This document shows, in pieces, positions 5,326-42,597 of a stretch of 64,000 bases of DNA (position 1 is its first letter; each line of letters begins with the position of its first letter). Under the pieces are notes generated by a model, which saw nothing but the letters and a program-made list of their open reading frames with translations, made no database searches and was not told the origin of the DNA. The stretch comes from Auanema rhodensis (Eukaryota > Animalia > Nematoda), in the NCBI GenBank assembly GCA_964057225.1, contig OZ059895.1, forward strand, positions 12,772,001 to 12,836,000, written 5' to 3'. The translations under genes and the position numbers were made by a program.

Positions 5326-5338
5326 GGTGGAACCTCCA
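5326..5338 (-). promoter_or_regulatory. Primer-binding site (tRNA-Gln), family B copy 1
   Basis: Minus strand TGGAGGTTCCACC directly abuts the LTR; complementary to the 3' end of eukaryotic tRNA-Gln (…GGTGGAACCTCCA). Confidence 0.85.
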
Positions 5339-5683
5339 CGTTCCCTTATGCTCCTGCGTCGATAATATAAACCATTGTAGTTTATACTATGACGCGCATA
5401 GTATTCCTTGGTGTAGCGGTGAGGAATAAAGAGCATAAGGTCAATCATAAGATAAAAGAGAGAAAGATTTATTAGCATGAAACTACAACAATAATATACA
5501 AAGATAAAGATACAATACAATAATATAAATATAAGTATAAAGACTAAACTACAAGCCGTCCATGAGCTTGCTAAGAGGCGAACTCCCGACCAAGGGAACG
5601 AGGGAAGGCGGAGCCATTCCTCGGTCCTCTGGTCGTCTGGCTCTAACCCTTCAGCTACATATATGGGGAGTCCGAATGGAACG
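5339..5683 (-). repeat. Family B 5' LTR (345 bp), copy 1
   Basis: About 9 differences from the LTRs at 35670 and 47412; terminal inverted repeat CGTTCC…GGAACG. Confidence 0.95.
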
Positions 5684-5901
5684 TTAACTTTACTGTTTCT
5701 ATCTATTTCCTATTGAAACAAACATTGTTTTAACACTATACAACTGTGAAACCTTTTTTAATTTATTGTATTTGGAGCTCATAAGATTTGATATCATCGA
5801 GGAATTTAGATGTAACGTAGAAAATTACATAACTAACATGAAATTGGAAAAAAAACAATAACGAGGATAAGTATGTAAATCATTGAATATCAGATTTTTT
5901 C

Positions 5902-6020
5902 GCTTACGACCATACCACGTTGAAAGTACGCCATCCCGTCCGATCTGGCAAGTCAAGCAACGTTGGGCCCGGTTAGTACTTGGATCGGAGACGGCTTGGG
6001 AATCCCGGGTGCCGTAAGCT
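5902..6020 (+). rRNA. 5S ribosomal RNA gene (representative copy)
   Basis: GCTTACGACCATACC…GCCGTAAGCT, 119 nt; ends pair as helix I; internal control region with AGTACTTGGATCGGAG; followed by T-runs; nematode-like sequence. Confidence 0.98.
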
Positions 6021-6034
6021 TTTCAAATTTTTTT
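6020..6034 (+). terminator. Pol III oligo-T terminators (T4 then T7), present in every full unit
   Basis: TTTTcaaaTTTTTTT directly at the 5S 3' end. Confidence 0.85.
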
Positions 6035-6035
6035 A

Positions 6036-6064
6036 ACGATCATACCACGTTGAAAGTACGCCAT
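6036..6064 (+). pseudogene. 29-nt duplicate of 5S nt 5-33, downstream of each full gene (representative)
   Basis: acgatcataccacgttgaaagtacgccat versus gene acgaccataccacgttgaaagtacgccat (1 mismatch), offset exactly 130 bp. Confidence 0.93.
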
Positions 6065-9000: not shown

Positions 9001-9075
9001 ACATAACTAACATGAAATTGAAAAAAAAACAATAACGAGGATAAGTATGTAAATCATTGAATATCAGATTTTTTC

Positions 9076-9108
9076 GCTTACGACCATACCACGTTGAAAG
9101 TACGCCAT
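9076..9108 (+). pseudogene. Truncated 5S (nt 1-33 only) of a 399-bp deletion unit (representative of ~19)
   Basis: The 5S start runs directly into spacer gcagctg; 130-bp deletion between the direct repeats removes the internal promoter. Confidence 0.93.
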
Positions 9109-12100
9109 GCAGCTGATTTTCAATTTTATCTCTTCCGTAACAAATGTTTTTAATTTTCCAGCAGTTTTACTTAGATAGCTCAACCCAAGGCATCAAAATA
9201 TCTTCAATCTTATTTCTATATTACAGTTATAAACCAGTAGTTTATGAACCTTCATCTTAACTTTACTGTTTCTATCTATTTCCTATTGAAACAAACATTG
9301 TTTTAACACTATACAACTGTGAAACCTTTTTTAATTTATTGTATTTGGAGCTCATAAGATTTGATATCATCGAGGAATTTAGATGTAACGTAGAAAATTA
9401 CATAACTAACATGAAATTGGAAAAAAAACAATAACGAGGATAAGTATGTAAATCATTGAATATCAGGTATTTTCGCTTACGACCATACCACGTTGAAAGT
9501 ACGCCATCCCGTCCGATCTGGCAAGTCAAGCAACGTTGGGCCCGGTTAGTACTTGGATCGGAGACGGCTTGGGAATCCCGGGTGCCGTAAGCTTTTCAAA
9601 TTTTTTTAACGATCATACCACGTTGAAAGTACGCCATGCAGCTGATTTTCAATTTTATCTCTTCAGTAACAAATGTTTTTAATTTTCCAGCAGTTTTACT
9701 TAGATAGCTCAACCCAAGGCATCAAAATATCTTCAATCTTATTTCTATATTACAGTTATAAACCAGTAGTTTATGAACCTTCATCTTAACTTTACTGTTT
9801 CTATCTATTTCCTATTGAAACAAACATTGTTTTAACACTATACAACTGTGAAACCTTTTTTAATTTATTGTATTTGGAGCTCATAAGATTTGATATCATC
9901 GAGGAATTTAGATGTAACGTAGAAAATTACATAACTAACATGAAATTGGAAAAAAAACAATAACGAGGATAAGTATGTAAATCATTGAATATCAGGTATT
10001 TTCGCTTACGACCATACCACGTTGAAAGTACGCCATCCCGTCCGATCTGGCAAGTCAAGCAACGTTGGGCCCGGTTAGTACTTGGATCGGAGACGGCTTG
10101 GGAATCCCGGGTGCCGTAAGCTTTTCAAATTTTTTTAACGATCATACCACGTTGAAAGTACGCCATGCAGCTGATTTTCAATTTTATCTCTTCAGTAACA
10201 AATGTTTTTAATTTTCCAGCAGTTTTACTTAGATAGCTCAACCCAAGGCATCAAAATATTTTCAATCTTATTTCTATATTACAGTTATAAACCAGTAGTT
10301 TATGAACCTTCATCTTAACTTTACTGTTTCTATCTATTTCCTATTGAAACAAACATTGTTTTAACACTATACAACTGTGAAACCTTTTTTAATTTATTGT
10401 ATTTGGAGCTCATAAGATTTGATATCATCGAGGAATTTAGATGTAACGTAGAAAATTACATAACTAACATGAAATTGGAAAAAAAACAATAACGAGGATA
10501 AGTATGTAAATCATTGAATATCAGGTATTTTCGCTTACGACCATACCACGTTGAAAGTACGCCATCCCGTCCGATCTGGCAAGTCAAGCAACGTTGGGCC
10601 CGGTTAGTACTTGGATCGGAGACGGCTTGGGAATCCCGGGTGCCGTAAGCTTTTCAAATTTTTTTAACGATCATACCACGTTGAAAGTACGCCATGCAGC
10701 TGATTTTCAATTTTATCTCTTCAGTAACAAATGTTTTTAATTTTCCAGCAGTTTTACTTAGATAGCTCAACCCAAGGCATCAAAATATCTTCAATCTTAT
10801 TTCTATATTACAGTTATAAACCAGTAGTTTATGAACCTTCATCTTAACTTTACTGTTTCTATCTATTTCCTATTGAAACAAACATTGTTTTAACACTATA
10901 CAACTGTGAAACCTTTTTTAATTTATTGTATTTGGAGCTCATAAGATTTGATATCATCGAGGAATTTAGATGTAACGTAGAAAATTACATAACTAACATG
11001 AAATTGGAAAAAAAACAATAACGAGGATAAGTATGTAAATCATTGAATATCAGGTATTTTCGCTTACGACCATACCACGTTGAAAGTACGCCATCCCGTC
11101 CGATCTGGCAAGTCAAGCAACGTTGGGCCCGGTTAGTACTTGGATCGGAGACGGCTTGGGAATCCCGGGTGCCGTAAGCTTTTCAAATTTTTTTAACGAT
11201 CATACCACGTTGAAAGTACGCCATGCAGCTGATTTTCAATTTTATCTCTTCAGTAACAAATGTTTTTAATTTTCCAGCAGTTTTACTTAGATAGCTCAAC
11301 CCAAGGCATCAAAATATCTTCAATCTTATTTCTATATTACAGTTATAAACCAGTAGTTTATGAACCTTCATCTTAACTTTACTGTTTCTATCTATTTCCT
11401 ATTGAAACAAACATTGTTTTAACACTATACAACTGTGAAACCTTTTTTAATTTATTGTATTTGGAGCTCATAAGATTTGATATCATCGAGGAATTTAGAT
11501 GTAACGTAGAAAATTACATAACTAACATGAAATTGGAAAAAAAACAATAACGAGGATAAGTATGTAAATCATTGAATATCAGGTATTTTCGCTTACGACC
11601 ATACCACGTTGAAAGTACGCCATCCCGTCCGATCTGGCAAGTCAAGCAACGTTGGGCCCGGTTAGTACTTGGATCGGAGACGGCTTGGGAATCCCGGGTG
11701 CCGTAAGCTTTTCAAATTTTTTTAACGATCATACCACGTTGAAAGTACGCCATGCAGCTGATTTTCAATTTTATCTCTTCAGTAACAAATGTTTTTAATT
11801 TTCCAGCAGTTTTACTTAGATAGCTCAACCCAAGGCATCAAAATATCTTCAATCTTATTTCTATATTACAGTTATAAACCAGTAGTTTATGAACCTTCAT
11901 CTTAACTTTACTGTTTCTATCTATTTCCTATTGAAACAAACATTGTTTTAACACTATACAACTGTGAAACCTTTTTTAATTTATTGTATTTGGAGCTCAT
12001 AAGATTTGATATCATCGAGGAATTTAGATGTAACGTAGAAAATTACATAACTAACATGAAATTGGAAAAAAAACAATAACGAGGATAAGTATGTAAATCA

Positions 12101-12595
12101 TTGAATATCAGGTATTTTCGCTTACGACCATACCACGTTGAAAGTACGCCATCCCGTCCGATCTGGCAAGTCAAGCAACGTTGGGCCCGGTTAGTACTTG
12201 GATCGGAGACGGCTTGGGAATCCCGGGTGCCGTAAGCTTTTCAAATTTTTTTAACGATCATACCACGTTGAAAGTACGCCATGCAGCTGATTTTCAATTT
12301 TATCTCTTCAGTAACAAATGTTTTTAATTTTCCAGCAGTTTTACTTAGATAGCTCAACCCAAGGCATCAAAATATCTTCAATCTTATTTCTATATTACAG
12401 TTATAAACCAGTAGTTTATGAACCTTCATCTTAACTTTACTGTTTCTATCTATTTCCTATTGAAACAAACATTGTTTTAACACTATACAACTGTGAAACC
12501 TTTTTTAATTTATTGTATTTGGAGCTCATAAGATTTGATATCATCGAGGAATTTAGATGTAACGTAGAAAATTACATAACTAACATGAAATTGGA

Positions 12596-13012
12596 TGTTA
12601 CATACATATCTCAAAGGAAAGCAGCTGACCATGGCAGCTGCTATTATTAAACTAATGCAGATAGTTTTTAAGCAATTCTGAGAATATTCTAGATGCACTT
12701 TTTATAAGCTTTGTAACAATTTGTGTAAACTGAGTAGGAGTTGTATGGATATATAAACCTGAGTCCTCAAGACTCAGGCATCTCATTATCTTATTATCTT
12801 ACTTTCTCTTTATCTTCTTTATATTCTCTTTCTTAACTCTAGCTTAAATCTTTGTATAATTATATTATAATGCGAACAATAAACCTTTATATATTTGATT
12901 TCTTGTTTCTTATTTCACCTTACATTACACACTTATATTTAAAATCATACTCATCTTCTCATAGTCTGTTTGGATCTCTCAACTTGGAACCATTGAGAAT
13001 CTAAATGGAACG
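12596..13012 (+). repeat. Family A 5' LTR (417 bp)
   Basis: TGTTAC…GGAACG; TATATAAA at 12750-12757; AATAAA at 12878-12883; repeated at 24511 and 33114. Confidence 0.97.
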
Positions 13013-13030
13013 TGGAGGTTCCACCGAGAT
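13013..13030 (+). promoter_or_regulatory. Primer-binding site (tRNA-Gln), family A
   Basis: TGGAGGTTCCACCGAGAT, an 18-nt complement of the tRNA-Gln 3' end as I recall it (ATCTCGGTGGAACCTCCA), immediately after the LTR. Confidence 0.9.
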
Positions 13031-14211
13031 CCTTCCTTTTGGACAGGATCTCGTAAAGGAACTCAAGCGCTACCGTCTACATCTCTTATTCAATTAAAAA
13101 TCTTATCTCTCTCTTAAAGTTAGCTTATAATATTTTCTTAAAAACTCTAAAAACTTTTCTATTAAAAATTATATCCAAAAACTCTTTACAAAAACTCAGT
13201 TTTCCATTCATTATATTCTCATAAATCATTTTCAATTATTCATAAGAGTACTTATATCATTTATCATTCTCTCTATCCAAAATCCTATATACGAAAATTA
13301 TTCAAATTCAATAATTAACTTTTCTAAGAATTATAAGTTTATTTTCACATTTTTTGAACAAAAATAGTTAAGTTCTTTATAAAATTAATTTAGAATTAAG
13401 AAATAAAAAAGAATATTACCTCTCAATCTTAATCATCTTATCATATTATCTGAATCTTCATCTTATCATACTATCTTAATCATCCTATCATACCATATTT
13501 TCATTATTTTCTTTATGTTCGTTTATAAAACTATTATTCTTATGCTACTACACTGTATTCTCATAAACCCACCCCTTCCCCCCCCCCGTAATTTCATAAA
13601 CAAGAAATCCCGTGTTAAACACGACAGTAAAAATATTTATTAGGCGCAGCGTATCCAAATTCCGATTACCTTAGCACCTGAAAATACGAAAAATAATTAA
13701 ATTAATCAATCAGTTTTAACTCATACGCAAAAACCATCCCCCCTCGTTAAGAATAATGCCAGACACTCAAGAGACTCGAGCGGAGGCCGACACTCAGGAT
13801 AAGACGTACGCCCCATGAAATAATTAGAGAATTTTTGAATTGAAATCTGCCCCACATTGATATAAATAATAAGAGTGGTCTCGCCATCATAGAGTCAGGG
13901 AGCAGGATGCAGAAGGCAGCTGACATACCTGTGACTCAGATAGGTTAATGAGGTCTGGGAAAATGAAATGATTGCGAAAATTCTATTTTGTATCCTTGTC
14001 CCAAAAGACTGGCGAACTATTAACTTTCATTTCATGCCTTTTTCACAATATAGAACTTGTCCCTTCGAAAAGGCACACTAGTTTCAAACCTGTGTTAGAC
14101 CCGGACGAGCTATATTGGTAAAGAGATTACTTGCAAGACTAGCTACCTTCATAAGAATCGCGCACACAAACCCAACATTATTCTTTACGTTTTTCAATAT
14201 ATAAAATTATT

Positions 14212-17200
14212 TTGGCACACGTTGGATATAACAAATTTCCTTACAGGATACCAACGATGCTGCCCAATACTGGTCCAAAACCTCCGCTGGACCCTGCTGC
14301 CACTTCAAATATTATAAGAAGAAAAAGACAACCGCCCGCAACATATTCTCCCCCCTCTGCAAAACAAGCGAAGTTAAGCATTAAAACAAAGTCAATGGTA
14401 ATACATACCCCAAGACATCGCGGCATTCAAAAACAATTCACCAATCCCAAATCACATGAAAAAACGAAGAAACAAAAAACAGACATAGTCGAAAGAAACA
14501 CCTTAGAAAAGAAAATTATCCCAAACATTAAACCTATTCCTAAAAACATAGCAAGCAAAGGGAACCCTCAAAACCCCCCAACCAACACCATACCAAATAC
14601 AATCAACCCAATCAATCCTTTAATAGCCACCCCTAGAAGAAGCAATACACCAACCACACAAAAATCACCTACGCCCGCACTTTCTTCAACCACACCCGCA
14701 GTAAGCTCATCCCCACCTCTACGAAACTCACCTTCATCCATTGATCATTCTACATCCGGGCATTCTCTATCTCCGTCTCTTCCATCGCAAACTAATCAAG
14801 CAAATACTTTTGTTGCAGAAAACAAGAGAATTAACCCAAGAATGGACCCAATGGACGAAGGCGCACCACTTACGCACACCTCGGGAAGGGCACCTGTTCC
14901 AACACCTACAATCATCCCTCAACCAGCAGCGATTCCGTCCGCCATACGCGATATAAAAGCTCCACGCTACGATGGAAAAACACCATTCAACCGCTATCTA
15001 CTATACCTAGATGAACACTTCAACGCTACAAGAACAACTATGCCCGAACGTCTTCAAAGCATACAATTATTGCTAGAAGATGATCGAGCAAGAGAAGCGT
15101 ACAGAAAACTCACAACCGAAGATAAGCGACTTGGATGGGACCATGTCAAGAAGCGACTCTCAGAAATGATCACACCGAAAAAACAGAGAGAACGAGCAAT
15201 GCACCGCCTACATGGCTTGAAACAGTTACCAACGGAATCGGTACAAAGCTTTGCAACAAGATGTTCTAACGAAGCCTACTCAGCTATGGACATGAACAAC
15301 GAAAGTGAGCTTAACATGCTCCGATCCACCTTCACCTGGGGACTAAGACCCGAAATAAGCGAACATGTTAGCCGTCTAGACCCACCAAACTTTGAGGAAG
15401 CTTACGAAATGGCCTTACGAGAAGAACTCTTTATACAAAATAGACCACCATCGTTCGTCAACAATATGGAGAAGTCGTTCAACAACCTCAACATTCGAGA
15501 CTCAAAGGACAACAATCAATACCAGAGAAACGAATCTAAGGAGTTCAAAGGAACCAAACCGATGTATAATGGCAATGGCAAACCACACAACCGATATCCG
15601 GACAGATACAACAACCAATATCGGCCTCATCAACACCAATACAGGAACCATAACTCACGATTCTCTCAAAATAAGGGATCAAGACAAAACTACTTCGACA
15701 GATCACGGAACAGAAGCCAGGAAAGACCATACTATCGAAACCGCGACCAAAACTATAGCGGACACAACAACCGGCGACAATCAAACAATCACGAACAATA
15801 CCCCTCTCAATACAATCGAAGCCAATACAACAATTATAGAAGTCGCCCGCGCAGCACCTCCAATGGACCGGAACGGTACAGAGAACGCACACAGAGCCCA
15901 GGAGTACGTTTTCAAGTCAACAACGTCACGGAAAACGAAGTACCGAACAACAAAAGAAAATCAACACCATTCCTACCCCTCTTTATCACAATTATCGCAC
16001 TCATTATAAATACATGCAGTGCAGAAACAACGTACCAGTTATGCACAGGAAACAGAGGAGGAATATATGTTGAGCCGCCATCGCCAACAGCTTGCCGATC
16101 CATCGCACCAACTAATAACCATATCCAGAAGACTACAGCAGAATTGTTCATCCAAAACCTACAACCAAAAGAATGGGAAGCATGGAAATGTGCAATTGAA
16201 ACTTACCAACTCTGCATTCACGACGTTTTCTTCATCAGAGAAACTAATGTCTCACTAGCAAAAGTTTCACCAACAACACTGCAAGAATGTTCGTCAGCTA
16301 TTAAAGAAAGAATATTCAACGGTACCAACCTTCAAAGAGAAGCACCAGGACTCTATGGAACTCCATTCCCACATACAACTATTACTAATGGTATATGGAA
16401 ACAGGAATGCGAACAACGTACCAGATTCATAGCTGAACGAGGACACATGACCAGCCTACAAGACAATACAGTACTCTCAGATATATTCATAAACGACAAC
16501 GGATGCACCAGTGACAAAGGACAATGCCTAACCAACAACGCTCTCATCATATGGACCCCACCATCAGAAAAACATAGTTGCTCGTACACTTCATTAGGCT
16601 CTCACGAAGTTTTTATATCAGAAGACACCATATTGATTCCCGGAATTCAAAGTGCTTTTATTCTAAACAATAAAACACCGGAAAAAGAAGCCTCCTCATG
16701 CTTACAAAAAGATATATTTACTACAAATAGTGGAACTCTAATCTCCTTCAACTCAACCTCAAGCTTAGGACGATCAAGAAGACACGCAATCACGGAATAC
16801 CCTAAAGGATTCTTGACAGTTCATCAATACCCCTCGCTAAGATATTCAGCCAGCAAAACCGGAACTATTCTACTATATACAACCTATATTCAACGGAAAA
16901 GACTTGACATCCATTACAATCTCAATAACATAACAAATATGTTACCTAAGTATATCGCAATCTTCAAATACCTAGGTATAAATTTTGATGTTATCAAAAA
17001 TCGTCTTATATGGCACAAATATGAAGACGTCAACATAGCCATTCTACACGCCCTAGGAGAAGCAGAAATAAGAGAAGCAACAAAAATCGCGATCGATAAT
17101 CTATCGTATAAGGAACTTACGCATAAACTTAGCAAACGGATCACAATTAAGGATTTTAAGAAGATACTACCAACCAAAACAGGAGACTACTATGAAATCG

Positions 17201-20200
17201 CGAAAGAAATTGCTTACTCACTTGCGGAAATACCTACTACGTTAGCTACAGGAGAAACAACACCATCTTTAGAAGAATACTTATATCAACTCATGCCACC
17301 AAGAAAACCAAGACTCACCAAGACACGAAACGATTTAGAACTGTACGAACAACTAGCACAAGCAAAAATTATCCTGAACGCAATAAATAATCCGAAGAAG
17401 CTACATTCAAAAGAAGAATACGAAGCAGAAATGAAGAAATGGATCAAATATGAAAAAGAACTGAACTTACCACCATTACAACTGCCAAACTACACAGTTA
17501 TCTTCGATGGCGACGATATATTCTACGGCTTCCGGAAAAGAAATCCTACAAATTATAGCATTACACAAGAGGATAGTGAAAAATTTTATAATCATTATCT
17601 ACCCCTTATCAGTACTCCCGGAACACGACCTTTTGCAACCACAATTAGAAGCACTTCGACCCCCCTACAAACTACTACTACAACCACTACCACGACCCCT
17701 AAGCCTACAACCATAAGGAACGTCATCACTTCGACAATCACACCCAAAACACATATATCCACAACAACTAGACCCAAACCAACAATACCCACGTCTTCAT
17801 CAACTACTACTACTACTACCACTACTACTACTACTACTTCTACTACTGCTAGACCCAGATCAACAACAACCACAACACCTACAACAACCACAACTATATT
17901 CACCACTCATCGACCAACACAATCATTCTCCACCCCCCAATCTACATTCAATATTACTACAAACCCAATCACAATCACCTCAAGCCAGGAATACAATAGG
18001 AAAGAATCACTCACCAAGTCACCGCCTCCAAGAACTACAAAAAGATCTATCACTACCACTCGCAGCACACCTGAAGAAATATCATCACATATTGGTAAGA
18101 AAGCTCACGTAGACTACCTTAAAGCTAAGAACGATATCGTCCAAAAATGGAATGAACATCTTCATCAACAAGAAACGCAATCTCATCTACAATATGCCAC
18201 TACCAATCTGGAAGATGATATCATACGTACGTTCACAACAAACAGAAACAACATATGCCACGTACAAAATAAACAACTACTTACCTGGTGGGCTATTCTT
18301 CAAATAAATCCTACTATAGGGATGCGTACAATGCTACGACGACAGGATATATCTGCAAGATTCATAAATGATAAACTAATTTATGTAATGCCATGCACAC
18401 CAATTCAAATTACAAAAACATACCGCGATCACAAAGTCAACAGCACGTGTTTTCTGGAAACCCCAGTCGAAACGGAACATCACGGCCAACTGTTCATCCT
18501 ACCAGGTACAAGAGACCTCACACCGATGGCACATGCCATACCATGCGGATTCACAATCAAGGATCCCTGGAAAGAAAACGATCAATGGACTAATAATAAC
18601 CAATCAATAAATGTAACATCACCAGCATACATCGACGAGTTAGGATCAATCAACCTAGAACATATCAAGTTTAATGGAAGCAACATTTTCAACAACCTAA
18701 CAGAATCAACGTTTCCTATGGCACTAGCAATATCATATGGATCCAGCTTAGCAACGCTACAGGCTACTTTACCAGGAAGAATAAAACCTGTAATCAAACA
18801 AAGATTAATTCCTAACATGAACCCTGTTACCCTAACAGCAGGAGCAGCCAGCAGCTTACTACTCAGCTACGAACATACAAAAGAAGCTATAACTTGGAAA
18901 ATGTTTGACTTTCTGTCACCAATATGGGAAAAGATTCAAACCTGGACACTACGCGTACTTGCTATCATTGGATCAATCATCATAACAATTGGCATAATCA
19001 CACTCGCCACCTGGATAATAAAAATATACGCATGTAGTTCAAGGATACCCATCAACAATGTCAAATGGGAAGCAGAATACTTACAACCACTATCAACTGA
19101 GAACACAAGAACAGAAACATCTCATCCTTCTCCGTCCGCTCCATACGTCGACAACCATCACAACAGCTGTCAACTCACATTGTATGATCCTTCAGCACCA
19201 ATTCCTGAACACATTTATGAAGCTTATTTCCCTACAAGCATGAAGAAAGAAAACATAAACTACATAGGAGGATCACAATTACCGTTTGTCCCGATTTCAA
19301 TCCACAATCACATCTTTAAGGCACTATGGGACACGGGAGCATCAGCATCATACATGCGAGAATCCACCTTCAAACAACTGCCCGCTGCAACGATGGTACT
19401 AAAACAAACAACAGCGATAGTCGCGAATAAATCTAAATTCTCATTTATGGGATACACAAGGATCCTCATAACAATAGGAACAACAGAAACAGAACACAAA
19501 TTTTATGTAGCAGAAGATAACTACTGTCCAGCACCAGTGTTACTTGGAATAGACTTCATGGAAGCATTACATCAACAAGGAATTTACACCTCACTTCGAC
19601 CGCTGGATAAAACAATTGTTATCGGCACAACACATGTTCCACTAGCACGAGAAACATCTCCGTGGGAACACCAGACCACGAAAGCATATGTGGTTAGCTT
19701 AGAAAACAAAACGCTAAGACCAGGAGAAACAAGAACGCTCACGCTAGAAGTACACGATCCAGAAAGCTATGAACAGGCGTTTCTAGATTGTAAGAAACCA
19801 GGCAACAAACTCTCTTTCACGCCTACTATATTTACGCCAACTGGATACGGAGTACAAATTTACGCGACGAACATATGCAAACAGCCACTCGAAATTCAAA
19901 TGAATCAAGAAATAGGGATAGCAGAAGCGATACCAAAGGACAACCAAGAAAAATACGAAGGACAATACATACCTCCAGAAGCTCGATGGGAAGAACAACT
20001 GCCATATTTCCCAGACAATTTCATCAATGAGCTTGACCTCTCAGAAGCCTGCTTCTCGCAAATCGAACAACAGCAACTGAAAGAAATAATTTTACTACAT
20101 AAACAAGCGTTTCTCAACGAAGATAGAAATATCGGACTCTTCCTAGGACCAATTGAACACTCCATTCCAATCATGCCAGGAAAAACACCATCATTCAAAA

Positions 20201-23200
20201 TTACTTATCGTATACCACTCTCCCAACAAGAAGAAGTGGAGAAACAAATAGAAGAAATGCTACAACAAAGAATCATTGAACCATCAAACTCAATGACAAC
20301 TAGTCCAGTAATTTTGGTGAAGAAGAAGGACAAAACTTACAGATTTGTAACGGACTTTCGAGCTCTGAATGCAATCACCCAGAAACAAGTATACGTCATA
20401 TCAAACATACAGGACATCCTAGACTTGGCCGCTGGAGCAAGGATCTTCAGCAACTTTGATTTAGTATCTGGATTTTTCCAAATACCTCTTAAGAAAGAAG
20501 ATCGTCATCTTACAGCTTTCACAACAACAAGTGGAACTTATCAATATTGTCGAATGCCGATGGGATTATGTGGATCACCCCATACTTTTCAAAACGCAGT
20601 ACGATACCTGCAATCAATGGTTAAATGCAAGCTATTCGTATATCTAGATGATTTACTGTTAATCTCTGAATCTACGACAGCACATTTAAAAGATATTGAA
20701 GAAGTTTTGGAAGCAGTAACTCAAATAGGATTCAAAATAAAACTGAAGAAATGCGCATTCGCAAGAAAGGAAGTAAAATTTCTAGGATACATAGTTGGAC
20801 AAGAAGGAATTAAACCGGACCCACATAAAATTAAGGCAATACAAGATTATCCCCAACCAAAATCAACAACAGGAGTAAGAGCTTTCATGGGAGTAGTAAA
20901 CTACTTCCGAAGGTTCATAAAGAACGCTGCAGGAATAGCAACACCACTCTACAACCTCACTCGGAAAGACACTCCGTTCAAATGGACAGAAGAAGAAGAA
21001 ATTGCTTTTAATACTTTGAAGAAAACATTGACTCAAGCACCTGTGTTACAAGCACCAATCCCGAAACGACCATATGTTATTGAAAGTGATGGAAGTATGA
21101 TAGCAGTTGGCGCTGTACTACTTCAAGCGAAAGACGATCAAGAACCATTACACCCCATAGCTTTTGCTAGTCGGAAACTCAACAAAGCTGAAAGGAATTA
21201 TCCACCAATAGAAGTAGAAGCATTAGCTCTTACATTCGCCGTTAAACAATTTCGCACCTACATACTAGGAACAGCAACCAAAATTATCACGGATCATAGA
21301 CCACTTACTAGTTTAATGACTAGAAAAGATTTAATAGGTCGTTTAGCAAAATTTCAAATTGTTTTACAAGAATACGATATTGAAATTATCTACAGACCAG
21401 GAAAATTAAATAGTGTATGTGACGCATTATCACGATATTTTGAAGATGAAATCAACGAAGCAAAACCACCAGCAAAGAAGAAAAACGAAAGAAAAACGAC
21501 GGAAGATACTATTCATCAGATAAACACCTTCACGATAGCAGATATTCGATCAGTTCAGAATCAATCAAATTGGATAAAAGAAACTATGGATAAAATAAAG
21601 AACAATACAGCTGGACGACAACTGACGGACAGATATATTGTGTACAACGATGTACTATACTCAAAACCAAAAAGAAGCCTACAAGTACCACGAACAATTT
21701 TACCACGAGAAGAACACATAATTAATCCAATTATGAAGAAATTTCATGAAGATCCGACACTCGGAGCTCATCTAGGAATAAACAAAACAATGGACTCAAT
21801 ATCAAGACGATTTACATGGACTGGAATGCAAGAAGACATTACAAACTACATCAACAGATGTCTTGCTTGTGCGAAAAGAAAGAACAACCCTCACGAAGCA
21901 ACGGTGGAACCAATGAAAAATTTTCCAACATCAACAAAACCATGGCAAAGAATACACATGGATATACTCGGACCATTACCTAGGACAGAACAAGAAAACA
22001 GATATGTTCTTTCAATTCAAGATTCTTTTTCAAAATGGATAATCGCAATTCCGCTAATCAGACAAACATCAGAAGAAATTATATCAGCTATCGAAAAATA
22101 TCTCTTTTATGTTTTTGGACCACCTGTTACTATCATCACAGACAATGGATCTAATTTTATTTCAAACGATTTCACTACTATGTGCAGTAATTTTGGAACT
22201 ACACACCACACTACTATGCCGTATTACAAAAACGCTAACGGACAAGTAGAAAGATTGCATCGGACGATCGAAGAAGCATTAACAGCCTACGTTAATGACG
22301 AACAAAACGATTGGGATAAGATACTTCCGAAGATTATTTTTACACTCAACAGATTACCAAACGCCACCACTAAAACATCACCATACGAATGTTTGTTTGG
22401 ACAAGTAGCACGTCTACCCATTGACAAAAACTTGGAAACACCGGAAGAACAAAATATCACGGATCAGCTCAAAAACTTAAGAGATATTCAAGAAAAAGTC
22501 AAGGAAAAGATTGCCACCAACGAAGAAAGAATGAAGCAGAAATACGATCAAGCACATAGGACAAAAGAAAGAATATTGGATATAGGAGATCGAGTATTTG
22601 TACAAAGAGCGAACCCAAGCAACAAATTACAAATACGAAGAGATGGACCTTACCGGATAGTGACAATTGAAGGAAACAACATCAGCATAACGGACCAAGA
22701 TGGAAATATTATAAAAGCTCACAAAAATAACATACGTTATTTTCCACCAGACGATAATCTTATATCAACAAGAAATAATGAAGAAGAGGAAGAAGAAGAC
22801 CAAGACATAGCAAACGAAGAAGAAGAAGAAGAAGAAGCAAGTTGGAATAATCTGGATGAATGGGAACAAACCAATAATACGGAAAATAACAACAACTGTT
22901 ACCCAACAGGCAGTCCAGATACTCTCGCGCAACTGTTACCTATCACAGGGAATAACAGAGGAATAAACGAAGAAGAAATTGAACATAATTCAGAAACACC
23001 TGACGACCTTGCTACAGCAAGAAGAATAACAAATTCTAATATACAATTAGAAAATGAATCAACAACAATCGACAGAATTCAAGAGGACCTCAGACAGCTG
23101 ACACCTTTCTCTCAAGAAGAAGGTCCTAATCAAAACGATATAGAAAATAATAACGCAAAAACATACGAAAAGCTACGAGATCAATTCAAGAATGAAAACA

Positions 23201-23457
23201 GAAAGGAGCTATTTGAGGACAGAAACAAAAACTCACCAGCAATCAAAAATTGGAACACTACACTTGCCGCAGCACTAGGAATAGGAAATGAAAACTCACG
23301 CCCGTATCATGTTAAACTACAACCCAAAAGAAAAACACAAGACGAAGAAATCAGAAGTAATGGAGAATTGGAACTACATGGAAAAGCGGATCAAAGCAAA
23401 AAGCAGCAGAATAAATCTCCAACGCAAAACAAAGGAGAACAAGTACGAAACTTTTAA
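14212..23457 (+). CDS. Gag-Env-Pol polyprotein (capsid, gB-like class III envelope, aspartic protease, RT, RNase H, integrase)
   Basis: Capsid-like region ~14960-15435; signal peptide ~15967-16023; furin RSRR 16771-16782; gB-like block ~18181-18470; TM ~18950-19030; LWDTGAS ~19324; YLDD 20641; RNase H ESDGS ~21082; IN HHCC/DDE ~21745-22260; GPY ~22645. First ATG at 14257. Confidence 0.95.
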   Translation: MAHVGYNKFPYRIPTMLPNTGPKPPLDPAATSNIIRRKRQPPATYSPPSAKQAKLSIKTKSMVIHTPRHRGIQKQFTNPKSHEKTKKQKTDIVERNTLEKKIIPNIKPIPKNIASKGNPQNPPTNTIPNTINPINPLIATPRRSNTPTTQKSPTPALSSTTPAVSSSPPLRNSPSSIDHSTSGHSLSPSLPSQTNQANTFVAENKRINPRMDPMDEGAPLTHTSGRAPVPTPTIIPQPAAIPSAIRDIKAPRYDGKTPFNRYLLYLDEHFNATRTTMPERLQSIQLLLEDDRAREAYRKLTTEDKRLGWDHVKKRLSEMITPKKQRERAMHRLHGLKQLPTESVQSFATRCSNEAYSAMDMNNESELNMLRSTFTWGLRPEISEHVSRLDPPNFEEAYEMALREELFIQNRPPSFVNNMEKSFNNLNIRDSKDNNQYQRNESKEFKGTKPMYNGNGKPHNRYPDRYNNQYRPHQHQYRNHNSRFSQNKGSRQNYFDRSRNRSQERPYYRNRDQNYSGHNNRRQSNNHEQYPSQYNRSQYNNYRSRPRSTSNGPERYRERTQSPGVRFQVNNVTENEVPNNKRKSTPFLPLFITIIALIINTCSAETTYQLCTGNRGGIYVEPPSPTACRSIAPTNNHIQKTTAELFIQNLQPKEWEAWKCAIETYQLCIHDVFFIRETNVSLAKVSPTTLQECSSAIKERIFNGTNLQREAPGLYGTPFPHTTITNGIWKQECEQRTRFIAERGHMTSLQDNTVLSDIFINDNGCTSDKGQCLTNNALIIWTPPSEKHSCSYTSLGSHEVFISEDTILIPGIQSAFILNNKTPEKEASSCLQKDIFTTNSGTLISFNSTSSLGRSRRHAITEYPKGFLTVHQYPSLRYSASKTGTILLYTTYIQRKRLDIHYNLNNITNMLPKYIAIFKYLGINFDVIKNRLIWHKYEDVNIAILHALGEAEIREATKIAIDNLSYKELTHKLSKRITIKDFKKILPTKTGDYYEIAKEIAYSLAEIPTTLATGETTPSLEEYLYQLMPPRKPRLTKTRNDLELYEQLAQAKIILNAINNPKKLHSKEEYEAEMKKWIKYEKELNLPPLQLPNYTVIFDGDDIFYGFRKRNPTNYSITQEDSEKFYNHYLPLISTPGTRPFATTIRSTSTPLQTTTTTTTTTPKPTTIRNVITSTITPKTHISTTTRPKPTIPTSSSTTTTTTTTTTTTSTTARPRSTTTTTPTTTTTIFTTHRPTQSFSTPQSTFNITTNPITITSSQEYNRKESLTKSPPPRTTKRSITTTRSTPEEISSHIGKKAHVDYLKAKNDIVQKWNEHLHQQETQSHLQYATTNLEDDIIRTFTTNRNNICHVQNKQLLTWWAILQINPTIGMRTMLRRQDISARFINDKLIYVMPCTPIQITKTYRDHKVNSTCFLETPVETEHHGQLFILPGTRDLTPMAHAIPCGFTIKDPWKENDQWTNNNQSINVTSPAYIDELGSINLEHIKFNGSNIFNNLTESTFPMALAISYGSSLATLQATLPGRIKPVIKQRLIPNMNPVTLTAGAASSLLLSYEHTKEAITWKMFDFLSPIWEKIQTWTLRVLAIIGSIIITIGIITLATWIIKIYACSSRIPINNVKWEAEYLQPLSTENTRTETSHPSPSAPYVDNHHNSCQLTLYDPSAPIPEHIYEAYFPTSMKKENINYIGGSQLPFVPISIHNHIFKALWDTGASASYMRESTFKQLPAATMVLKQTTAIVANKSKFSFMGYTRILITIGTTETEHKFYVAEDNYCPAPVLLGIDFMEALHQQGIYTSLRPLDKTIVIGTTHVPLARETSPWEHQTTKAYVVSLENKTLRPGETRTLTLEVHDPESYEQAFLDCKKPGNKLSFTPTIFTPTGYGVQIYATNICKQPLEIQMNQEIGIAEAIPKDNQEKYEGQYIPPEARWEEQLPYFPDNFINELDLSEACFSQIEQQQLKEIILLHKQAFLNEDRNIGLFLGPIEHSIPIMPGKTPSFKITYRIPLSQQEEVEKQIEEMLQQRIIEPSNSMTTSPVILVKKKDKTYRFVTDFRALNAITQKQVYVISNIQDILDLAAGARIFSNFDLVSGFFQIPLKKEDRHLTAFTTTSGTYQYCRMPMGLCGSPHTFQNAVRYLQSMVKCKLFVYLDDLLLISESTTAHLKDIEEVLEAVTQIGFKIKLKKCAFARKEVKFLGYIVGQEGIKPDPHKIKAIQDYPQPKSTTGVRAFMGVVNYFRRFIKNAAGIATPLYNLTRKDTPFKWTEEEEIAFNTLKKTLTQAPVLQAPIPKRPYVIESDGSMIAVGAVLLQAKDDQEPLHPIAFASRKLNKAERNYPPIEVEALALTFAVKQFRTYILGTATKIITDHRPLTSLMTRKDLIGRLAKFQIVLQEYDIEIIYRPGKLNSVCDALSRYFEDEINEAKPPAKKKNERKTTEDTIHQINTFTIADIRSVQNQSNWIKETMDKIKNNTAGRQLTDRYIVYNDVLYSKPKRSLQVPRTILPREEHIINPIMKKFHEDPTLGAHLGINKTMDSISRRFTWTGMQEDITNYINRCLACAKRKNNPHEATVEPMKNFPTSTKPWQRIHMDILGPLPRTEQENRYVLSIQDSFSKWIIAIPLIRQTSEEIISAIEKYLFYVFGPPVTIITDNGSNFISNDFTTMCSNFGTTHHTTMPYYKNANGQVERLHRTIEEALTAYVNDEQNDWDKILPKIIFTLNRLPNATTKTSPYECLFGQVARLPIDKNLETPEEQNITDQLKNLRDIQEKVKEKIATNEERMKQKYDQAHRTKERILDIGDRVFVQRANPSNKLQIRRDGPYRIVTIEGNNISITDQDGNIIKAHKNNIRYFPPDDNLISTRNNEEEEEEDQDIANEEEEEEEASWNNLDEWEQTNNTENNNNCYPTGSPDTLAQLLPITGNNRGINEEEIEHNSETPDDLATARRITNSNIQLENESTTIDRIQEDLRQLTPFSQEEGPNQNDIENNNAKTYEKLRDQFKNENRKELFEDRNKNSPAIKNWNTTLAAALGIGNENSRPYHVKLQPKRKTQDEEIRSNGELELHGKADQSKKQQNKSPTQNKGEQVRNF
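15967..19030 (+). other. Envelope glycoprotein domain embedded in the family A polyprotein
   Basis: Hydrophobic signal peptide, Cys-rich ectodomain with N-x-S/T sequons, furin site, Thr-rich mucin-like segment, LQY…C-x-x-QN…W…NP…AR…C-x-P…C-F-x-x-x-PV motif series, TM helix. Confidence 0.85.
17665..17905 (+). repeat. ACT/ACA/ACC codon repeats encoding a poly-Thr mucin-like stretch
   Basis: (act)n and (aca)n runs; the protein reads TTTTTTTTTTTT. Confidence 0.85.
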
Positions 23458-23660
23458 TTAACTAACAAAAATCGTAGAATTGTAAAAATAATTTTTCTTT
23501 CTTTCGTATAGTACATTAAACATAAGACATAGATCAAAAACCACCGAAATTCTAATTTCTATCCTTTAATTTTAACAAATTGTAACAATCACTGAAAAAC
23601 AAACTATATAAAGAGAAAATTTTGATAGAGAAAAATTCAATAACACTTTTCTTACTCAAA

Positions 23661-24305
23661 ATGACCTCCTCTCTCGCCAACGTCACACTCTCTACATTCC
23701 TCGCAACTCCAACACCACTGGTCCCTCTAGCGACCACTATTGAACAAGAATGGATAGAGGTAGAAAACCTTCGTGAAGGTCTTCTACCTATCAACTGCAT
23801 GAAGCCCAACTTAGGACCAATAATAAGCCTCCAAACGAGCAAATTGGAAAAGAAGACACAGCACATCCTATTTATGATGGAACTATTGGAGGAGAAAACC
23901 AAAAACTATAAGGAAAACGATCTGAAGGAGCTTCGCCAGCATCAAAAGAAATGGACAGAAGGATGTTCTCTCAGCCAGAAAGAGAACAGAATCCGACACA
24001 TAATGCTGGGACAACCCGCCAGAACGCAGACCACAGCTGACATCTACAAAGCAATGCCGACGTGGACAACACAGATGACACAACAAGCTGTAGGAAATAG
24101 CGGAACCGAAGAAGAAGCATCGTGGATAGAGATAGGGCAAGACCTATCAGTAGTAATCGAAAAACTACTGACAAAAAGGACTACCAACACGTCCGCATCA
24201 AAAAGTAAGGCAAAAGCAGTTAGCCAAACCATCAGAACAATGGAGCTGCTTGGACTAGCATCAATGACGGAAATGATCCAGGAAATTGACCAACTGGCGG
24301 ATTAA
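23661..24305 (+). CDS. Extra ORF 3' of pol in family A (~214 aa from ATG, unknown function, helical and charged)
   Basis: aaaATG at 23661; A-rich codon usage like the main ORF; lies between the pol stop and the 3' LTR; no obvious signal peptide or TM. Confidence 0.7.
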   Translation: MTSSLANVTLSTFLATPTPLVPLATTIEQEWIEVENLREGLLPINCMKPNLGPIISLQTSKLEKKTQHILFMMELLEEKTKNYKENDLKELRQHQKKWTEGCSLSQKENRIRHIMLGQPARTQTTADIYKAMPTWTTQMTQQAVGNSGTEEEASWIEIGQDLSVVIEKLLTKRTTNTSASKSKAKAVSQTIRTMELLGLASMTEMIQEIDQLAD

Positions 24306-24504
24306 AGAAGAGAGGAAAGGTTTAAATCATTTATAAAATTCTATCTCTTAAAATTTTTCTCTTTATCAATAGTTTGTTGAAAAAAAAAAAAAAAAATTTT
24401 TTGCTTTATCTCATGCCATTTTATTTTTTTTATTTTAATTTTTATTTTTCTCTCTTAATTATTATTTGCATATAACAGCTGAGGTCAGCTGACTTGTATC
24501 CGTT

Positions 24505-24510
24505 GGGGCA
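24505..24510 (+). promoter_or_regulatory. Minimal polypurine-tract position of family A (GGGGCA)
   Basis: Abuts the 3' LTR; family B has the same GGGCA ending; unusually short. Confidence 0.5.
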
Positions 24511-24927
24511 TGTTACATACATATCTCAAAGGAAAGCAGCTGACCATGGCAGCTGCTATTATTAAACTAATGCAGATAGTTTTTAAGCAATTCTGAGAAT
24601 ATTCTAGATGCACTTTTTATAAGCTTTGTAACAATTTGTGTAAACTGAGTAGGAGTTGTATGGATATATAAACCTGAGTCCTCAAGACTCAGGCATCTCA
24701 TTATCTTATTATCTTACTTTCTCTTTATCTTCTTTATATTCTCTTTCTTAACTCTAGCTTAAATCTTTGTATAATTATATTATAATGCGAACAATAAACC
24801 TTTATATATTTGATTTCTTGTTTCTTATTTCACCTTACATTACACACTTATATTTAAAATCATACTCATCTTCTCATAGTCTGTTTGGATCTCTCAACTT
24901 GGAACCATTGAGAATCTAAATGGAACG
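24511..24927 (+). repeat. Family A 3' LTR (417 bp)
   Basis: Identical by eye to 12596-13012. Confidence 0.97.
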
Positions 24928-27900
24928 TGGAAAAAAAACAATAACGAGGATAAGTATGTAAATCATTGAATATCAGGTATTTTCGCTTACGACCATACCA
25001 CGTTGAAAGTACGCCATCCCGTCCGATCTGGCAAGTCAAGCAACGTTGGGCCCGGTTAGTACTTGGATCGGAGACGGCTTGGGAATCCCGGGTGCCGTAA
25101 GCTTTTCAAATTTTTTTAACGATCATACCACGTTGAAAGTACGCCATGCAGCTGATTTTCAATTTTATCTCTTCAGTAACAAATGTTTTTAATTTTCCAG
25201 CAGTTTTACTTAGATAGCTCAACCCAAGGCATCAAAATATCTTCAATCTTATTTCTATATTACAGTTATAAACCAGTAGTTTATGAACCTTCATCTTAAC
25301 TTTACTGTTTCTATCTATTTCCTATTGAAACAAACATTGTTTTAACACTATACAACTGTGAAACCTTTTTTAATTTATTGTATTTGGAGCTCATAAGATT
25401 TGATATCATCGAGGAATTTAGATGTAACGTAGAAAATTACATAACTAACATGAAATTGGAAAAAAAACAATAAGGAGGATAAGTATGTAAATCATTGAAT
25501 ATCAGGTATTTTCGCTTACGACCATACCACGTTGAAAGTACGCCATCCCGTCCGATCTGGCAAGTCAAGCAACGTTGGGCCCGGTTAGTACTTGGATCGG
25601 AGACGGCTTGGGAATCCCGGGTGCCGTAAGCTTTTCAAATTTTTTTAACGATCATACCACGTTGAAAGTACGCCATGCAGCTGATTTTCAATTTTATCTC
25701 TTCAGTAACAAATGTTTTTAATTTTCCAGCAGTTTTACTTAGATAGCTCAACCCAAGGCATCAAAATATCTTCAATCTTATTTCTATATTACAGTTATAA
25801 ACCAGTAGTTTATGAACCTTCATCTTAACTTTACTGTTTCTATCTATTTCCTATTGAAACAAACATTGTTTTAACACTATACAACTGTGAAACCTTTTTT
25901 AATTTATTGTATTTGGAGCTCATAAGATTTGATATCATCGAGGAATTTAGATGTAACGTAGAAAATTACATAACTAACATGAAATTGGAAAAAAAACAAT
26001 AACGAGGATAAGTATGTAAATCATTGAATATCAGGTATTTTCGCTTACGACCATACCACGTTGAAAGTACGCCATCCCGTCCGATCTGGCAAGTCAAGCA
26101 ACGTTGGGCCCGGTTAGTACTTGGATCGGAGACGGCTTGGGAATCCCGGGTGCCGTAAGCTTTTCAAATTTTTTTAACGATCATACCACGTTGAAAGTAC
26201 GCCATGCAGCTGATTTTCAATTTTATCTCTTCAGTAACAAATGTTTTTAATTTTCCAGCAGTTTTACTTAGATAGCTCAACCCAAGGCATCAAAATATCT
26301 TCAATCTTATTTCTATATTACAGTTATAAACCAGTAGTTTATGAACCTTCATCTTAACTTTACTGTTTCTATCTATTTCCTATTGAAACAAACATTGTTT
26401 TAACACTATACAACTGTGAAACCTTTTTTAATTTATTGTATTTGGAGCTCATAAGATTTGATATCATCGAGGAATTTAGATGTAACGTAGAAAATTACAT
26501 AACTAACATGAAATTGGAAAAAAAACAATAACGAGGATAAGTATGTAAATCATTGAATATCAGGTATTTTCGCTTACGACCATACCACGTTGAAAGTACG
26601 CCATCCCGTCCGATCTGGCAAGTCAAGCAACGTTGGGCCCGGTTAGTACTTGGATCGGAGACGGCTTGGGAATCCCGGGTGCCGTAAGCTTTTCAAATTT
26701 TTTTAACGATCATACCACGTTGAAAGTACGCCATGCAGCTGATTTTCAATTTTATCTCTTCAGTAACAAATGTTTTTAATTTTCCAGCAGTTTTACTTAG
26801 ATAGCTCAACCCAAGGCATCAAAATATTTTCAATCTTATTTCTATATTACAGTTATAAACCAGTAGTTTATGAACCTTCATCTTAACTTTACTGTTTCTA
26901 TCTATTTCCTATTGAAACAAACATTGTTTTAACACTATACAACTGTGAAACCTTTTTTAATTTATTGTATTTGGAGCTCATAAGATTTGATATCATCGAG
27001 GAATTTAGATGTAACGTAGAAAATTACATAACTAACATGAAATTGGAAAAAAAACAATAACGAGGATAAGTATGTAAATCATTGAATATCAGATTTTTTC
27101 GCTTACGACCATACCACGTTGAAAGTACGCCATCCCGTCCGATCTGGCAAGTCAAGCAACGTTGGGCCCGGTTAGTACTTGGATCGGAGACGGCTTGGGA
27201 ATCCCGGGTGCCGTAAGCTTTTCAAATTTTTTTAACGATCATACCACGTTGAAAGTACGCCATGCAGCTGATTTTCAATTTTATCTCTTCAGTAACAAAT
27301 GTTTTTAATTTTCCAGCAGTTTTACTTAGATAGCTCAACCCAAGGCATCAAAATATCTTCAATCTTATTTCTATATTACAGTTATAAACCAGTAGTTTAT
27401 GAACCTTCATCTTAACTTTACTGTTTCTATCTATTTCCTATTGAAACAAACATTGTTTTAACACTATACAACTGTGAAACCTTTTTTAATTTATTGTATT
27501 TGGAGCTCATAAGATTTGATATCATCGAGGAATTTAGATGTAACGTAGAAAATTACATAACTAACATGAAATTGGAAAAAAAACAATAACGAGGATAAGT
27601 ATGTAAATCATTGAATATCAGGTATTTTCGCTTACGACCATACCACGTTGAAAGTACGCCATCCCGTCCGATCTGGCAAGTGAAGCAACGTTGGGCCCGG
27701 TTAGTACTTGGATCGGAGACGGCTTGGGAATCCCGGGTGCCGTAAGCTTTTCAAATTTTTTTAACGATCATACCACGTTGAAAGTACGCCATGCAGCTGA
27801 TTTTCAATTTTATCTCTTCAGTAACAAATGTTTTTAATTTTCCAGCAGTTTTACTTAGATAGCTCAACCCAAGGCATCAAAATATCTTCAATCTTATTTC

Positions 27901-30900
27901 TATATTACAGTTATAAACCAGTAGTTTATGAACCTTCATCTTAACTTTACTGTTTCTATCTATTTCCTATTGAAACAAACATTGTTTTAACACTATACAA
28001 CTGTGAAACCTTTTTTAATTTATTGTATTTGGAGCTCATAAGATTTGATATCATCGAGGAATTTAGATGTAACGTAGAAAATTACATAACTAACATGAAA
28101 TTGAAAAAAAACAATAACGAGGATAAGTATGTAAATCATTGAATATCAGATTTTTTCGCTTACGACCATACCACGTTGAAAGTACGCCATGCAGCTGATT
28201 TTCAATTTTATCTCTTCAGTAACAAATGTTTTTAATTTTCCAGCAGTTTTACTTAGATAGCTCAACCCAAGGCATCAAAATATCTTCAATCTTATTTCTA
28301 TATTACAGTTATAAACCAGTAGTTTATGAACCTTCATCTTAACTTTACTGTTTCTATCTATTTCCTATTGAAACAAACATTGTTTTAACACTATACAACT
28401 GTGAAACCTTTTTTAATTTATTGTATTTGGAGCTCATAAGATTTGATATCATCGAGGAATTTAGATGTAACGTAGAAAATTACATAACTAACATGAAATT
28501 GGAAAAAAAACAATAACGAGGATAAGTATGTAAATCATTGAATATCAGGTATTTTCGCTTACGACCATACCACGTTGAAAGTACGCCATCCCGTCCGATC
28601 TGGCAAGTCAAGCAACGTTGGGCCCGGTTAGTACTTGGATCGGAGACGGCTTGGGAATCCCGGGTGCCGTAAGCTTTTCAAATTTTTTTAACGATCATAC
28701 CACGTTGAAAGTACGCCATGCAGCTGATTTTCAATTTTATCTCTTCAGTAACAAATGTTTTTAATTTTCCAGCAGTTTTACTTAGATAGCTCAACCCAAG
28801 GCATCAAAATATCTTCAATCTTATTTCTATATTACAGTTATAAACCAGTAGTTTATGAACCTTCATCTTAACTTTACTGTTTCTATCTATTTCCTATTGA
28901 AACAAACATTGTTTTAACACTATACAACTGTGAAACCTTTTTTAATTTATTGTATTTGGAGCTCATAAGATTTGATATCATCGAGGAATTTAGATGTAAC
29001 GTAGAAAATTACATAACTAACATGAAATTGGAAAAAAAACAATAACGAGGATAAGTATGTAAATCATTGAATATCAGATTTTTTCGCTTACGACCATACC
29101 ACGTTGAAAGTACGCCATCCCGTCCGATCTGGCAAGTCAAGCAACGTTGGGCCCGGTTAGTACTTGGATCGGAGACGGCTTGGGAATCCCGGGTGCCGTA
29201 AGCTTTTCAAATTTTTTTAACGATCATACCACGTTGAAAGTACGCCATGCAGCTGATTTTCAATTTTATCTCTTCAGTAACAAATGTTTTTAATTTTCCA
29301 GCAGTTTTACTTAGATAGCTCAACCCAAGGCATCAAAATATCTTCAATCTTATTTCTATATTACAGTTATAAACCAGTAGTTTATGAACCTTCATCTTAA
29401 CTTTACTGTTTCTATCTATTTCCTATTGAAACAAACATTGTTTTAACACTATACAACTGTGAAACCTTTTTTAATTTATTGTATTTGGAGCTCATAAGAT
29501 TTGATATCATCGAGGAATTTAGATGTAACGTAGAAAATTACATAACTAACATGAAATTGGAAAAAAAACAATAACGAGGATAAGTATGTAAATCATTGAA
29601 TATCAGGTATTTTCGCTTACGACCATACCACGTTGAAAGTACGCCATCCCGTCCGATCTGGCAAGTCAAGCAACGTTGGGCCCGGTTAGTACTTGGATCG
29701 GAGACGGCTTGGGAATCCCGGGTGCCGTAAGCTTTTCAAATTTTTTTAACGATCATACCACGTTGAAAGTACGCCATGCAGCTGATTTTCAATTTTATCT
29801 CTTCAGTAACAAATGTTTTTAATTTTCCAGCAGTTTTACTTAGATAGCTCAACCCAAGGCATCAAAATATCTTCAATCTTATTTCTATATTACAGTTATA
29901 AACCAGTAGTTTATGAACCTTCATCTTAACTTTACTGTTTCTATCTATTTCCTATTGAAACAAACATTGTTTTAACACTATACAACTGTGAAACCTTTTT
30001 TAATTTATTGTATTTGGAGCTCATAAGATTTGATATCATCGAGGAATTTAGATGTAACGTAGAAAATTACATAACTAACATGAAATTGGAAAAAAAACAA
30101 TAACGAGGATAAGTATGTAAATCATTGAATATCAGGTATTTTCGCTTACGACCATACCACGTTGAAAGTACGCCATCCCGTCCGATCTGGCAAGTGAAGC
30201 AACGTTGGGCCCGGTTAGTACTTGGATCGGAGACGGCTTGGGAATCCCGGGTGCCGTAAGCTTTTCAAATTTTTTTAACGATCATACCACGTTGAAAGTA
30301 CGCCATGCAGCTGATTTTCAATTTTATCTCTTCAGTAACAAATGTTTTTAATTTTCCAGCAGTTTTACTTAGATAGCTCAACCCAAGGCATCAAAATATC
30401 TTCAATCTTATTTCTATATTACAGTTATAAACCAGTAGTTTATGAACCTTCATCTTAACTTTACTGTTTCTATCTATTTCCTATTGAAACAAACATTGTT
30501 TTAACACTATACAACTGTGAAACCTTTTTTAATTTATTGTATTTGGAGCTCATAAGATTTGATATCATCGAGGAATTTAGATGTAACGTAGAAAATTACA
30601 TAACTAACATGAAATTGAAAAAAAACAATAACGAGGATAAGTATGTAAATCATTGAATATCAGATTTTTTCGCTTACGACCATACCACGTTGAAAGTACG
30701 CCATGCAGCTGATTTTCAATTTTATCTCTTCAGTAACAAATGTTTTTAATTTTCCAGCAGTTTTACTTAGATAGCTCAACCCAAGGCATCAAAATATCTT
30801 CAATCTTATTTCTATATTACAGTTATAAACCAGTAGTTTATGAACCTTCATCTTAACTTTACTGTTTCTATCTATTTCCTATTGAAACAAACATTGTTTT

Positions 30901-42594: not shown

Positions 42595-42597
42595 TGT

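Follow-up and report, generated by a model that had tools for sequence, protein, structure and literature searches.

An intact Ty3/gypsy element of the nematode GAG-ENV-POL type in Auanema rhodensis, with a single reading frame probably threaded twice through the ER membrane

The stretch of Auanema rhodensis DNA analysed here (64,000 nucleotides of contig OZ059895.1, hereafter the window) carries an intact, recently inserted LTR element, which we named family A. The analyses presented below make it probable that this is a young member of the nematode GAG-ENV-POL type of Ty3/gypsy elements, with a single open reading frame (ORF) that encodes a polyprotein threaded twice through the membrane of the endoplasmic reticulum (ER). 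The element is 12,332 bp long (12596-24927, forward strand), is bounded by LTRs and has the two copies of a 4-bp target duplication on its flanks (12592-12595 and 24928-24931). Its features are:

12596..13012 (+): 5' LTR of family A, 417 bp, beginning with TG and ending with CG, identical to the 3' LTR
13013..13024 (+): primer-binding site of the tRNA-Gln type, directly after the 5' LTR
14257..23457 (+): single Gag-Env-Pol ORF (P0003), 3066 aa counted from the first ATG
14962..15432 (+): capsid domain, PF03732 (Retrotrans_gag) at E 2e-4, which aligns with the family B Gag
15433..15963 (+): basic Asn-rich linker (18% R+K, 17% N), with candidate protease sites aa 401 and 554 at its borders
15964..16020 (+): internal signal-peptide-like hydrophobic segment, aa 570-588, hydropathy 2.45
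16021..18948 (+): predicted class III fusion-protein ectodomain, from profile, AlphaFold and Foldseek matches
16840-17520 (+): helical Env insert of ~230 aa, after a furin-like site
17656-18078 (+): Thr-rich mucin-like stretch of Env, after the helical insert
18949..19026 (+): predicted transmembrane (TM) helix, aa 1565-1590, followed by candidate protease site aa 1599
19291..19563 (+): aspartic protease (PR, with DTG), PF13975 at E 1.7e-7
20317..21375 (+): reverse transcriptase (RT, with YLDD) and RNase H (RH), PF00078, PF17917 and PF17919, E about 1e-33
21721..22700 (+): integrase (IN; HHCC, D,D35E, GPY), PF17921 and PF00665
23661..24305 (+): small extra ORF of 214 aa, between pol and the 3' LTR
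24511..24927 (+): 3' LTR of family A, 100% identical to the 5' LTR

The frame free of stops runs from 14155 to 23457 and comprises 3100 codons from stop to stop. An earlier note, made from the sequence alone, had described an uninterrupted ORF of 3081 codons; the frame is indeed unbroken, but its proposed first codon at 14212 is a TTG and the first ATG lies at 14257. Along this ORF, Pfam families followed the order gag, gB-like segment, aspartic protease, RVT_1, RNase H, zinc finger and rve integrase, and the catalytic motifs (DTG, YLDD and D..D-35-E) were all intact, in agreement with the order capsid-Env-TM-PR-RT-RNase H-integrase that the note had read in one ORF. Its basic, R/N-rich region after the capsid was likewise borne out by composition; this linker is likely RNA-binding, and no zinc knuckle was seen in it. 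A Pro/Ser/Thr-rich N-terminus of ~235 aa precedes the capsid, and an acidic tail follows the integrase up to 23457. The small 3' ORF matched no Pfam family and gave no usable Atlas match, and on the coding strand of family B no ATG ORF of at least 40 aa was found at the corresponding place. In contigs from sequencing runs X4, X5, X10 and X12, each of the 12 indels shown (of 15) fell outside the ORF.

Three further insertions related to this element lie in the window:

1..5683 (-): second copy of family B, open from Gag into Env, stopping at the window edge
33114..33530 (+): solo LTR of family A, 97.8% identical to the LTRs of the intact element and flanked by a separate 4-bp target duplication
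35670..47755 (-): full-length copy of family B, with 344-bp LTRs that are 99.7% identical

Family B shares the domain order of A, at 27% and 39% identity to A, together with the same 12 nt as primer site, and its protein matched the Pfam family Monjiviricetes_fusion (8e-17). The earlier statement that B has the same order was thus confirmed, with the qualification that the window edge truncates the intact copy, and that a single frameshift, located in the Gag linker region, and a single in-frame stop within Env split the full copy into three ORFs. In both copies 402 open codons precede the first Met (2383-3588 and 44453-45658, both on the reverse strand), a feature suggestive of initiation at a non-AUG codon or of a spliced leader. 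The LTR termini of the two families are non-canonical, TG...CG in A and CG...CG with a 6-bp perfect inverted repeat (47755/47412) in B, and the last 6 LTR bases are common to both. A terminal CA is normally required by retroviral-type integrases.

The middle domain of the family A polyprotein is, according to profile comparisons and structural models, a class III fusion protein resembling herpes gB and nyamivirus glycoproteins. The Pfam Glycoprotein_B family matched A under the cut-off (E 5.5e-5), while an Env profile of 58 sequences matched herpes gB with E 1.5e-17 and, more weakly, chains named 'Glycoprotein' (E 6e-5). The AlphaFold model of the ectodomain (pLDDT 68, pTM only 0.43) showed a strand-rich fusion domain, a long central helix and a crown. 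When this model was compared by Foldseek, it matched gB in the PDB (E 1e-11), a rhabdo-like G (E 2e-15) and a nyavirus G (E 6e-14), and chuvirus-like glycoproteins also matched. Atlas features agreed with a class III fusion protein at scores below 0.9, and we treat them as a lead only. The description of this glycoprotein as Cys-rich did not hold, since Cys accounts for only 14 of the 970 ectodomain residues (1.4%), though the Cys positions are the most conserved columns of the ectodomain across relatives. A furin-like RSRR site is present at 16771. The helical insert that follows it was matched only in close relatives (8 other proteins of 275) and, modelled alone, reached a pLDDT of 41.

The predicted topology was assessed by hydropathy, on which the signal and TM calls rest. 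Only two segments of the family A ORF are strongly hydrophobic, aa 570-588 and 1565-1590, and these flank Env as the signal peptide and TM that had been proposed; a third, marginal segment (1.42) lies inside the ectodomain. By the same measure, and with the window's own proteins included, 42 of 44 proteins had exactly one TM separating Env from Pol, 28 of 34 Gag-Env proteins had a signal-like segment ahead of Env, and TM-like segments were absent from all 87 ectodomains. In family B, PR is preceded by an additional segment of weak hydrophobicity (1.87), and one relative lacks such a segment altogether. These comparisons support a polyprotein threaded twice through the ER membrane, an arrangement that would leave Gag and Pol in the cytosol, and they favour the earlier proposal that Env is luminal. 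We propose that unspliced genomic RNA would be translated as one polyprotein, in which the internal signal sequence would open translocation and signal peptidase would then release the N-terminus of Env. The TM helix would halt transfer and place Pol back in the cytosol while the gB-like Env folds in the lumen, where a furin-like enzyme might cleave it at RSRR. Capsids could then bud via Env-bearing membrane, possibly entering other cells.

In order to place the element among its relatives, we searched proteins with the Env region. Word-based searches returned nothing, while an index-free search gave 248 matches, the best 150 of which were analysed. Among these 150, 16 were gag-env-pol (two of them called by an RNase H match alone), 17 gag-env, 25 env-pol, 3 pol-env and 89 Env only. 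Hence gag before Env, pol after it, or both, occurred in one predicted protein in 58 cases and the reverse in 3; many of these relatives are gene models, so that 'one protein' need not be one ORF. Together with family B, the 58 proteins uphold the view that this is a conserved architecture and not a one-off capture.

The RT results agreed with the assignment to nematode Ty3/gypsy elements made in the earlier note. Identity to A over the RT region was 77% in Auanema sp. JU1783, 70% in Heterorhabditis bacteriophora, 61% in Caenorhabditis auriculariae and 56% in Diploscapter pachys; these relatives belong to the RT clade of A, and their database entries are generic or unnamed proteins, mostly partial. 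A and B fell inside a clade of 13 rows with their nearest relatives (support 100/98), and every named row of this clade was a rhabditid nematode. Two trees were computed, one from 73 of 130 rows (7 multi-repeat or partial proteins were left out) and the other from 48 chosen rows, neither containing BEL/Pao, copia or retrovirus rows. The nearest named RT matches included K02A2.6-like and transposon-412-like proteins, and A shows the traits of Metaviridae (Ty3/gypsy), namely LTRs, a target duplication, a tRNA primer site and the order PR-RT-RH-IN. In env-bearing Belpaoviridae (Atlas virus, Cer7, Tas) and in Drosophila errantiviruses, which like A are LTR elements with a fusion glycoprotein, env is located after pol. 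No BEL/Pao-type Pfam domain was matched in A, its env is not 3' of pol, and the separate F-type env ORF after pol that is typical of the Drosophila errantiviruses is absent. The Env of Atlas virus is described as phlebovirus-like.

The GAG-ENV-POL layout is already published for nematodes. According to Chary & Hayashi 2026 (eLife, PMC13524379), env-bearing Ty3/gypsy elements of nematodes show no other arrangement, and a gB-type ENV in this order is shared by elements from nematodes, bryozoans and flatworms; for nematode ERVs in which ENV and POL have swapped places, the same text cites Sacco et al. 2022. Several nematode clades are reported there, and supplement 1 lists 36 nematode elements, with the primer typed as Gln or similar in 9 of the 36 rows, all of them Caenorhabditis. 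The reverse complement of the family A primer site equals the 12-nt Gln entry given in that supplement for Clat_errantivirus_4 and Ctro_errantivirus_1. The published nematode elements resemble A in order, in a gB-type Env between signal and TM and in a tRNA-Gln primer, while the Env insert of A is larger than in these HSV/gB-type elements. The main text, as far as available, does not treat polyprotein processing, antisense splicing or 5S insertion.

One published member could be compared directly. P0274, from a 12,007-bp contig of C. brenneri, includes the domain-I letters printed for Cbre_errantivirus_2 in PMC13524379 and is one stop-free polyprotein of 2593 aa. It matched A in Env-N (2e-13), Env-C (6e-16), PR, RT, RH and IN, in the same order; between the two Gags there was no phmmer match, and this region was covered only by a long weak BLAST segment. 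Cbre_errantivirus_2 belongs to a neighbouring RT subclade, with 36% identity to A over Pol, and the node joining its clade to that of A and B had a support of 83/78, an unsettled bootstrap in a tree with one published member. The elements of Sacco et al. 2022 (J Gen Virol, doi 10.1099/jgv.0.001739) were reportedly named NERV and are said to carry gag, env, pro and pol in one continuous ORF, with an Env of nyamivirus-like type and a small additional ORF; these reported features fit A, a likeness by description only. Judging from these comparisons, A and B are additional families of the published group, so that two families are added and not a lineage. The suggestion that they form an undescribed lineage is not supported, because the order is published for nematodes, bryozoans and flatworms (PMC13524379) and because homology to a published member extends over Env and every Pol domain.

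We considered other explanations for a single ORF of this kind. An assembly chimera, or a one-off in-frame capture of a viral glycoprotein, could be suspected because tandem arrays, such as the one that holds this locus, are often misassembled, but we give it a negligible probability. Contigs run unbroken across the Gag-Env (X10 record 2) and Env-TM-PR (X4 record 16) junctions, ORF A is present in 15 listed runs from 4 studies (at least half of the sampled words in 14 of the 15), and the same order recurs in family B, in dozens of relatives among the best 150 of 248 and in P0274; the junction-spanning contigs and the order in relatives, P0274 included, rule this explanation out. Sense splicing or a subgenomic RNA might instead separate the products, for instance through a gag-pol message that skips env, with the full polyprotein as a minor species. 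Output of Gag, Env and Pol at 1:1:1 would be wasteful, and another route may avoid it; an env-skipping message would solve this problem of stoichiometry. Work on how the C. elegans Ty3/gypsy element Cer1 has its genomic RNA exported unspliced (abstract of PMC10309623) also speaks for this route, as does the fact that 15 of 19 joints were examined in contigs, which lose rare forms. Against it, sense GT..AG ends occurred in 0 of the 15 joints shown, and a 3282-nt RNA-like contig runs from Gag into Env unspliced. Moreover, acceptor-like words on the sense strand were below expectation (7 vs 14.1 in A and 3 vs 10.7 in B), and the in-frame fusion and the paired hydrophobic segments are conserved. 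We thus regard separation by splicing as unlikely.

It is also improbable, in our judgement, that Env is made and anchored without serving entry, as a tether or passenger of an element that is intracellular only. In favour of this reading, the two conserved halves of the A ectodomain are separated by an insert of 466 aa, the second longest among 87, and PMC13524379 interprets these lineages as inherited vertically with their hosts. Nevertheless, the Cys residues, the strands of the fusion domain and the long central helix are kept in relatives near 20% identity, and this retention across distant relatives makes a passenger Env unlikely. We favour the doubly threaded polyprotein with a gB-like Env.

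If Gag, Env and Pol are made as one chain, the junctions between them are candidate places for processing. The motif [VI]-N-x-hydrophobic was found in A at aa 401, 554, 1599, 1667 and 2422, positions that follow the capsid, directly precede the signal, directly follow the TM, precede PR and precede IN, respectively, with two further matches at 2214 and 2419. Among relatives it was present in 16 of 30 windows following the capsid, 18 of 30 preceding the signal, 20 of 38 following the TM, 17 of 38 preceding PR and 10 of 21 RH/IN linkers. In contrast to these 45-60% of junction windows, the motif occurred in 32 of 939 control tiles from ectodomains (3%) and in 0 of 100 from RT. Since the motif was picked out by eye in these very sequences, and since the Gag linkers have a high Asn content for which the controls were unmatched, its reading as the site of the element's own protease is only a lead. 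Cleavage by this protease at the five sites would detach Gag from its signal anchor, and Pol from the TM helix, on the cytosolic side. The capsid of flaviviruses is released from the membrane, and the release of Gag would be much like it.

Contigs from two of the runs revealed splicing on the opposite strand:

16159..20485 (-): fourteen GT-AG introns of an antisense transcript, from joints in runs X10 and X12

Eleven of these introns measured 41-77 nt, a shortness in keeping with a nematode host, and the others 469, 588 and 1015 nt. Eight joints were common to X10 and X12, two RNA-like runs (presumed RNA) from one study, and none appeared in the DNA runs X4 and X5. A protein encoded by the antisense transcript was rejected, as 9 of 13 exons had stops in all three frames and no open phase path existed. 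Conserved, selected splice sites were likewise unsupported, since both ends were kept in B for 1 of 8 alignable introns. Antisense donor words were in excess in A (34 vs 19.9 expected, z 3.5, in one of 24 tests) and this excess was absent in B; the sense strand is A-rich, which gives a U-rich antisense strand full of splice-like words. Given these words, the non-coding exons and the sites not kept in B, the antisense introns are likeliest the product of cryptic splicing of an antisense transcript. A silencing role of this transcript is possible, and the RNA may be made by the host or by the element itself.

All four insertions in the window lie in spacers of a host gene array:

5684..64000 (+): host 5S rDNA tandem array with 49 RF00001 matches, containing all four insertions

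The array has units of 529 bp interspersed with shorter ones of about 399 bp, and no spliced-leader RNA gene was found in it at the Rfam threshold. The insertions belong to two families, and their 4-bp target duplications differ where both ends are visible. The next 5S gene downstream lies 219 bp from the copy ending at 5683, 58 bp from 12596-24927, 78 bp from 33114-33530 and 59 bp from 35670-47755, so that three of the four insertions are 58-78 bp upstream of a 5S gene, within 21 bp of each other (P about 0.017 if sites were uniform along a 529-bp unit). Ty1, Ty3, DGLT-A and TRE5 likewise insert shortly upstream of Pol III genes, TRE5 at 37-41 bp upstream of 5S genes according to PMC5911963; these are elements of fungi and amoebae, and the likeness of A and B to them rests on four insertions in one window. 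In the available part of a review of transposable elements in rDNA (PMC10946416), fish are the only animals named for 5S spacers, and a limited, partial-text literature search found no Pol III-directed integration by nematode LTR elements. The clustering upstream of 5S genes resembles the Pol III targeting of yeast and amoebae and, with four insertions in one window, we take it as a lead. We advance only tentatively, and with considerable doubt, the composite proposal that A and B target the region upstream of 5S genes with a CG-end integrase, that their protease cuts Gag off its ER anchor in a flavivirus-like manner and that a spliced antisense transcript runs against env-pol.

Altogether, the comparison yields a testable processing map for these polyproteins, with two predicted membrane crossings and five candidate protease sites, and the value of the family A copy lies in its completeness and young age. 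If the clustering next to 5S genes proved to be genome-wide, it would represent Pol III-directed integration in an animal.
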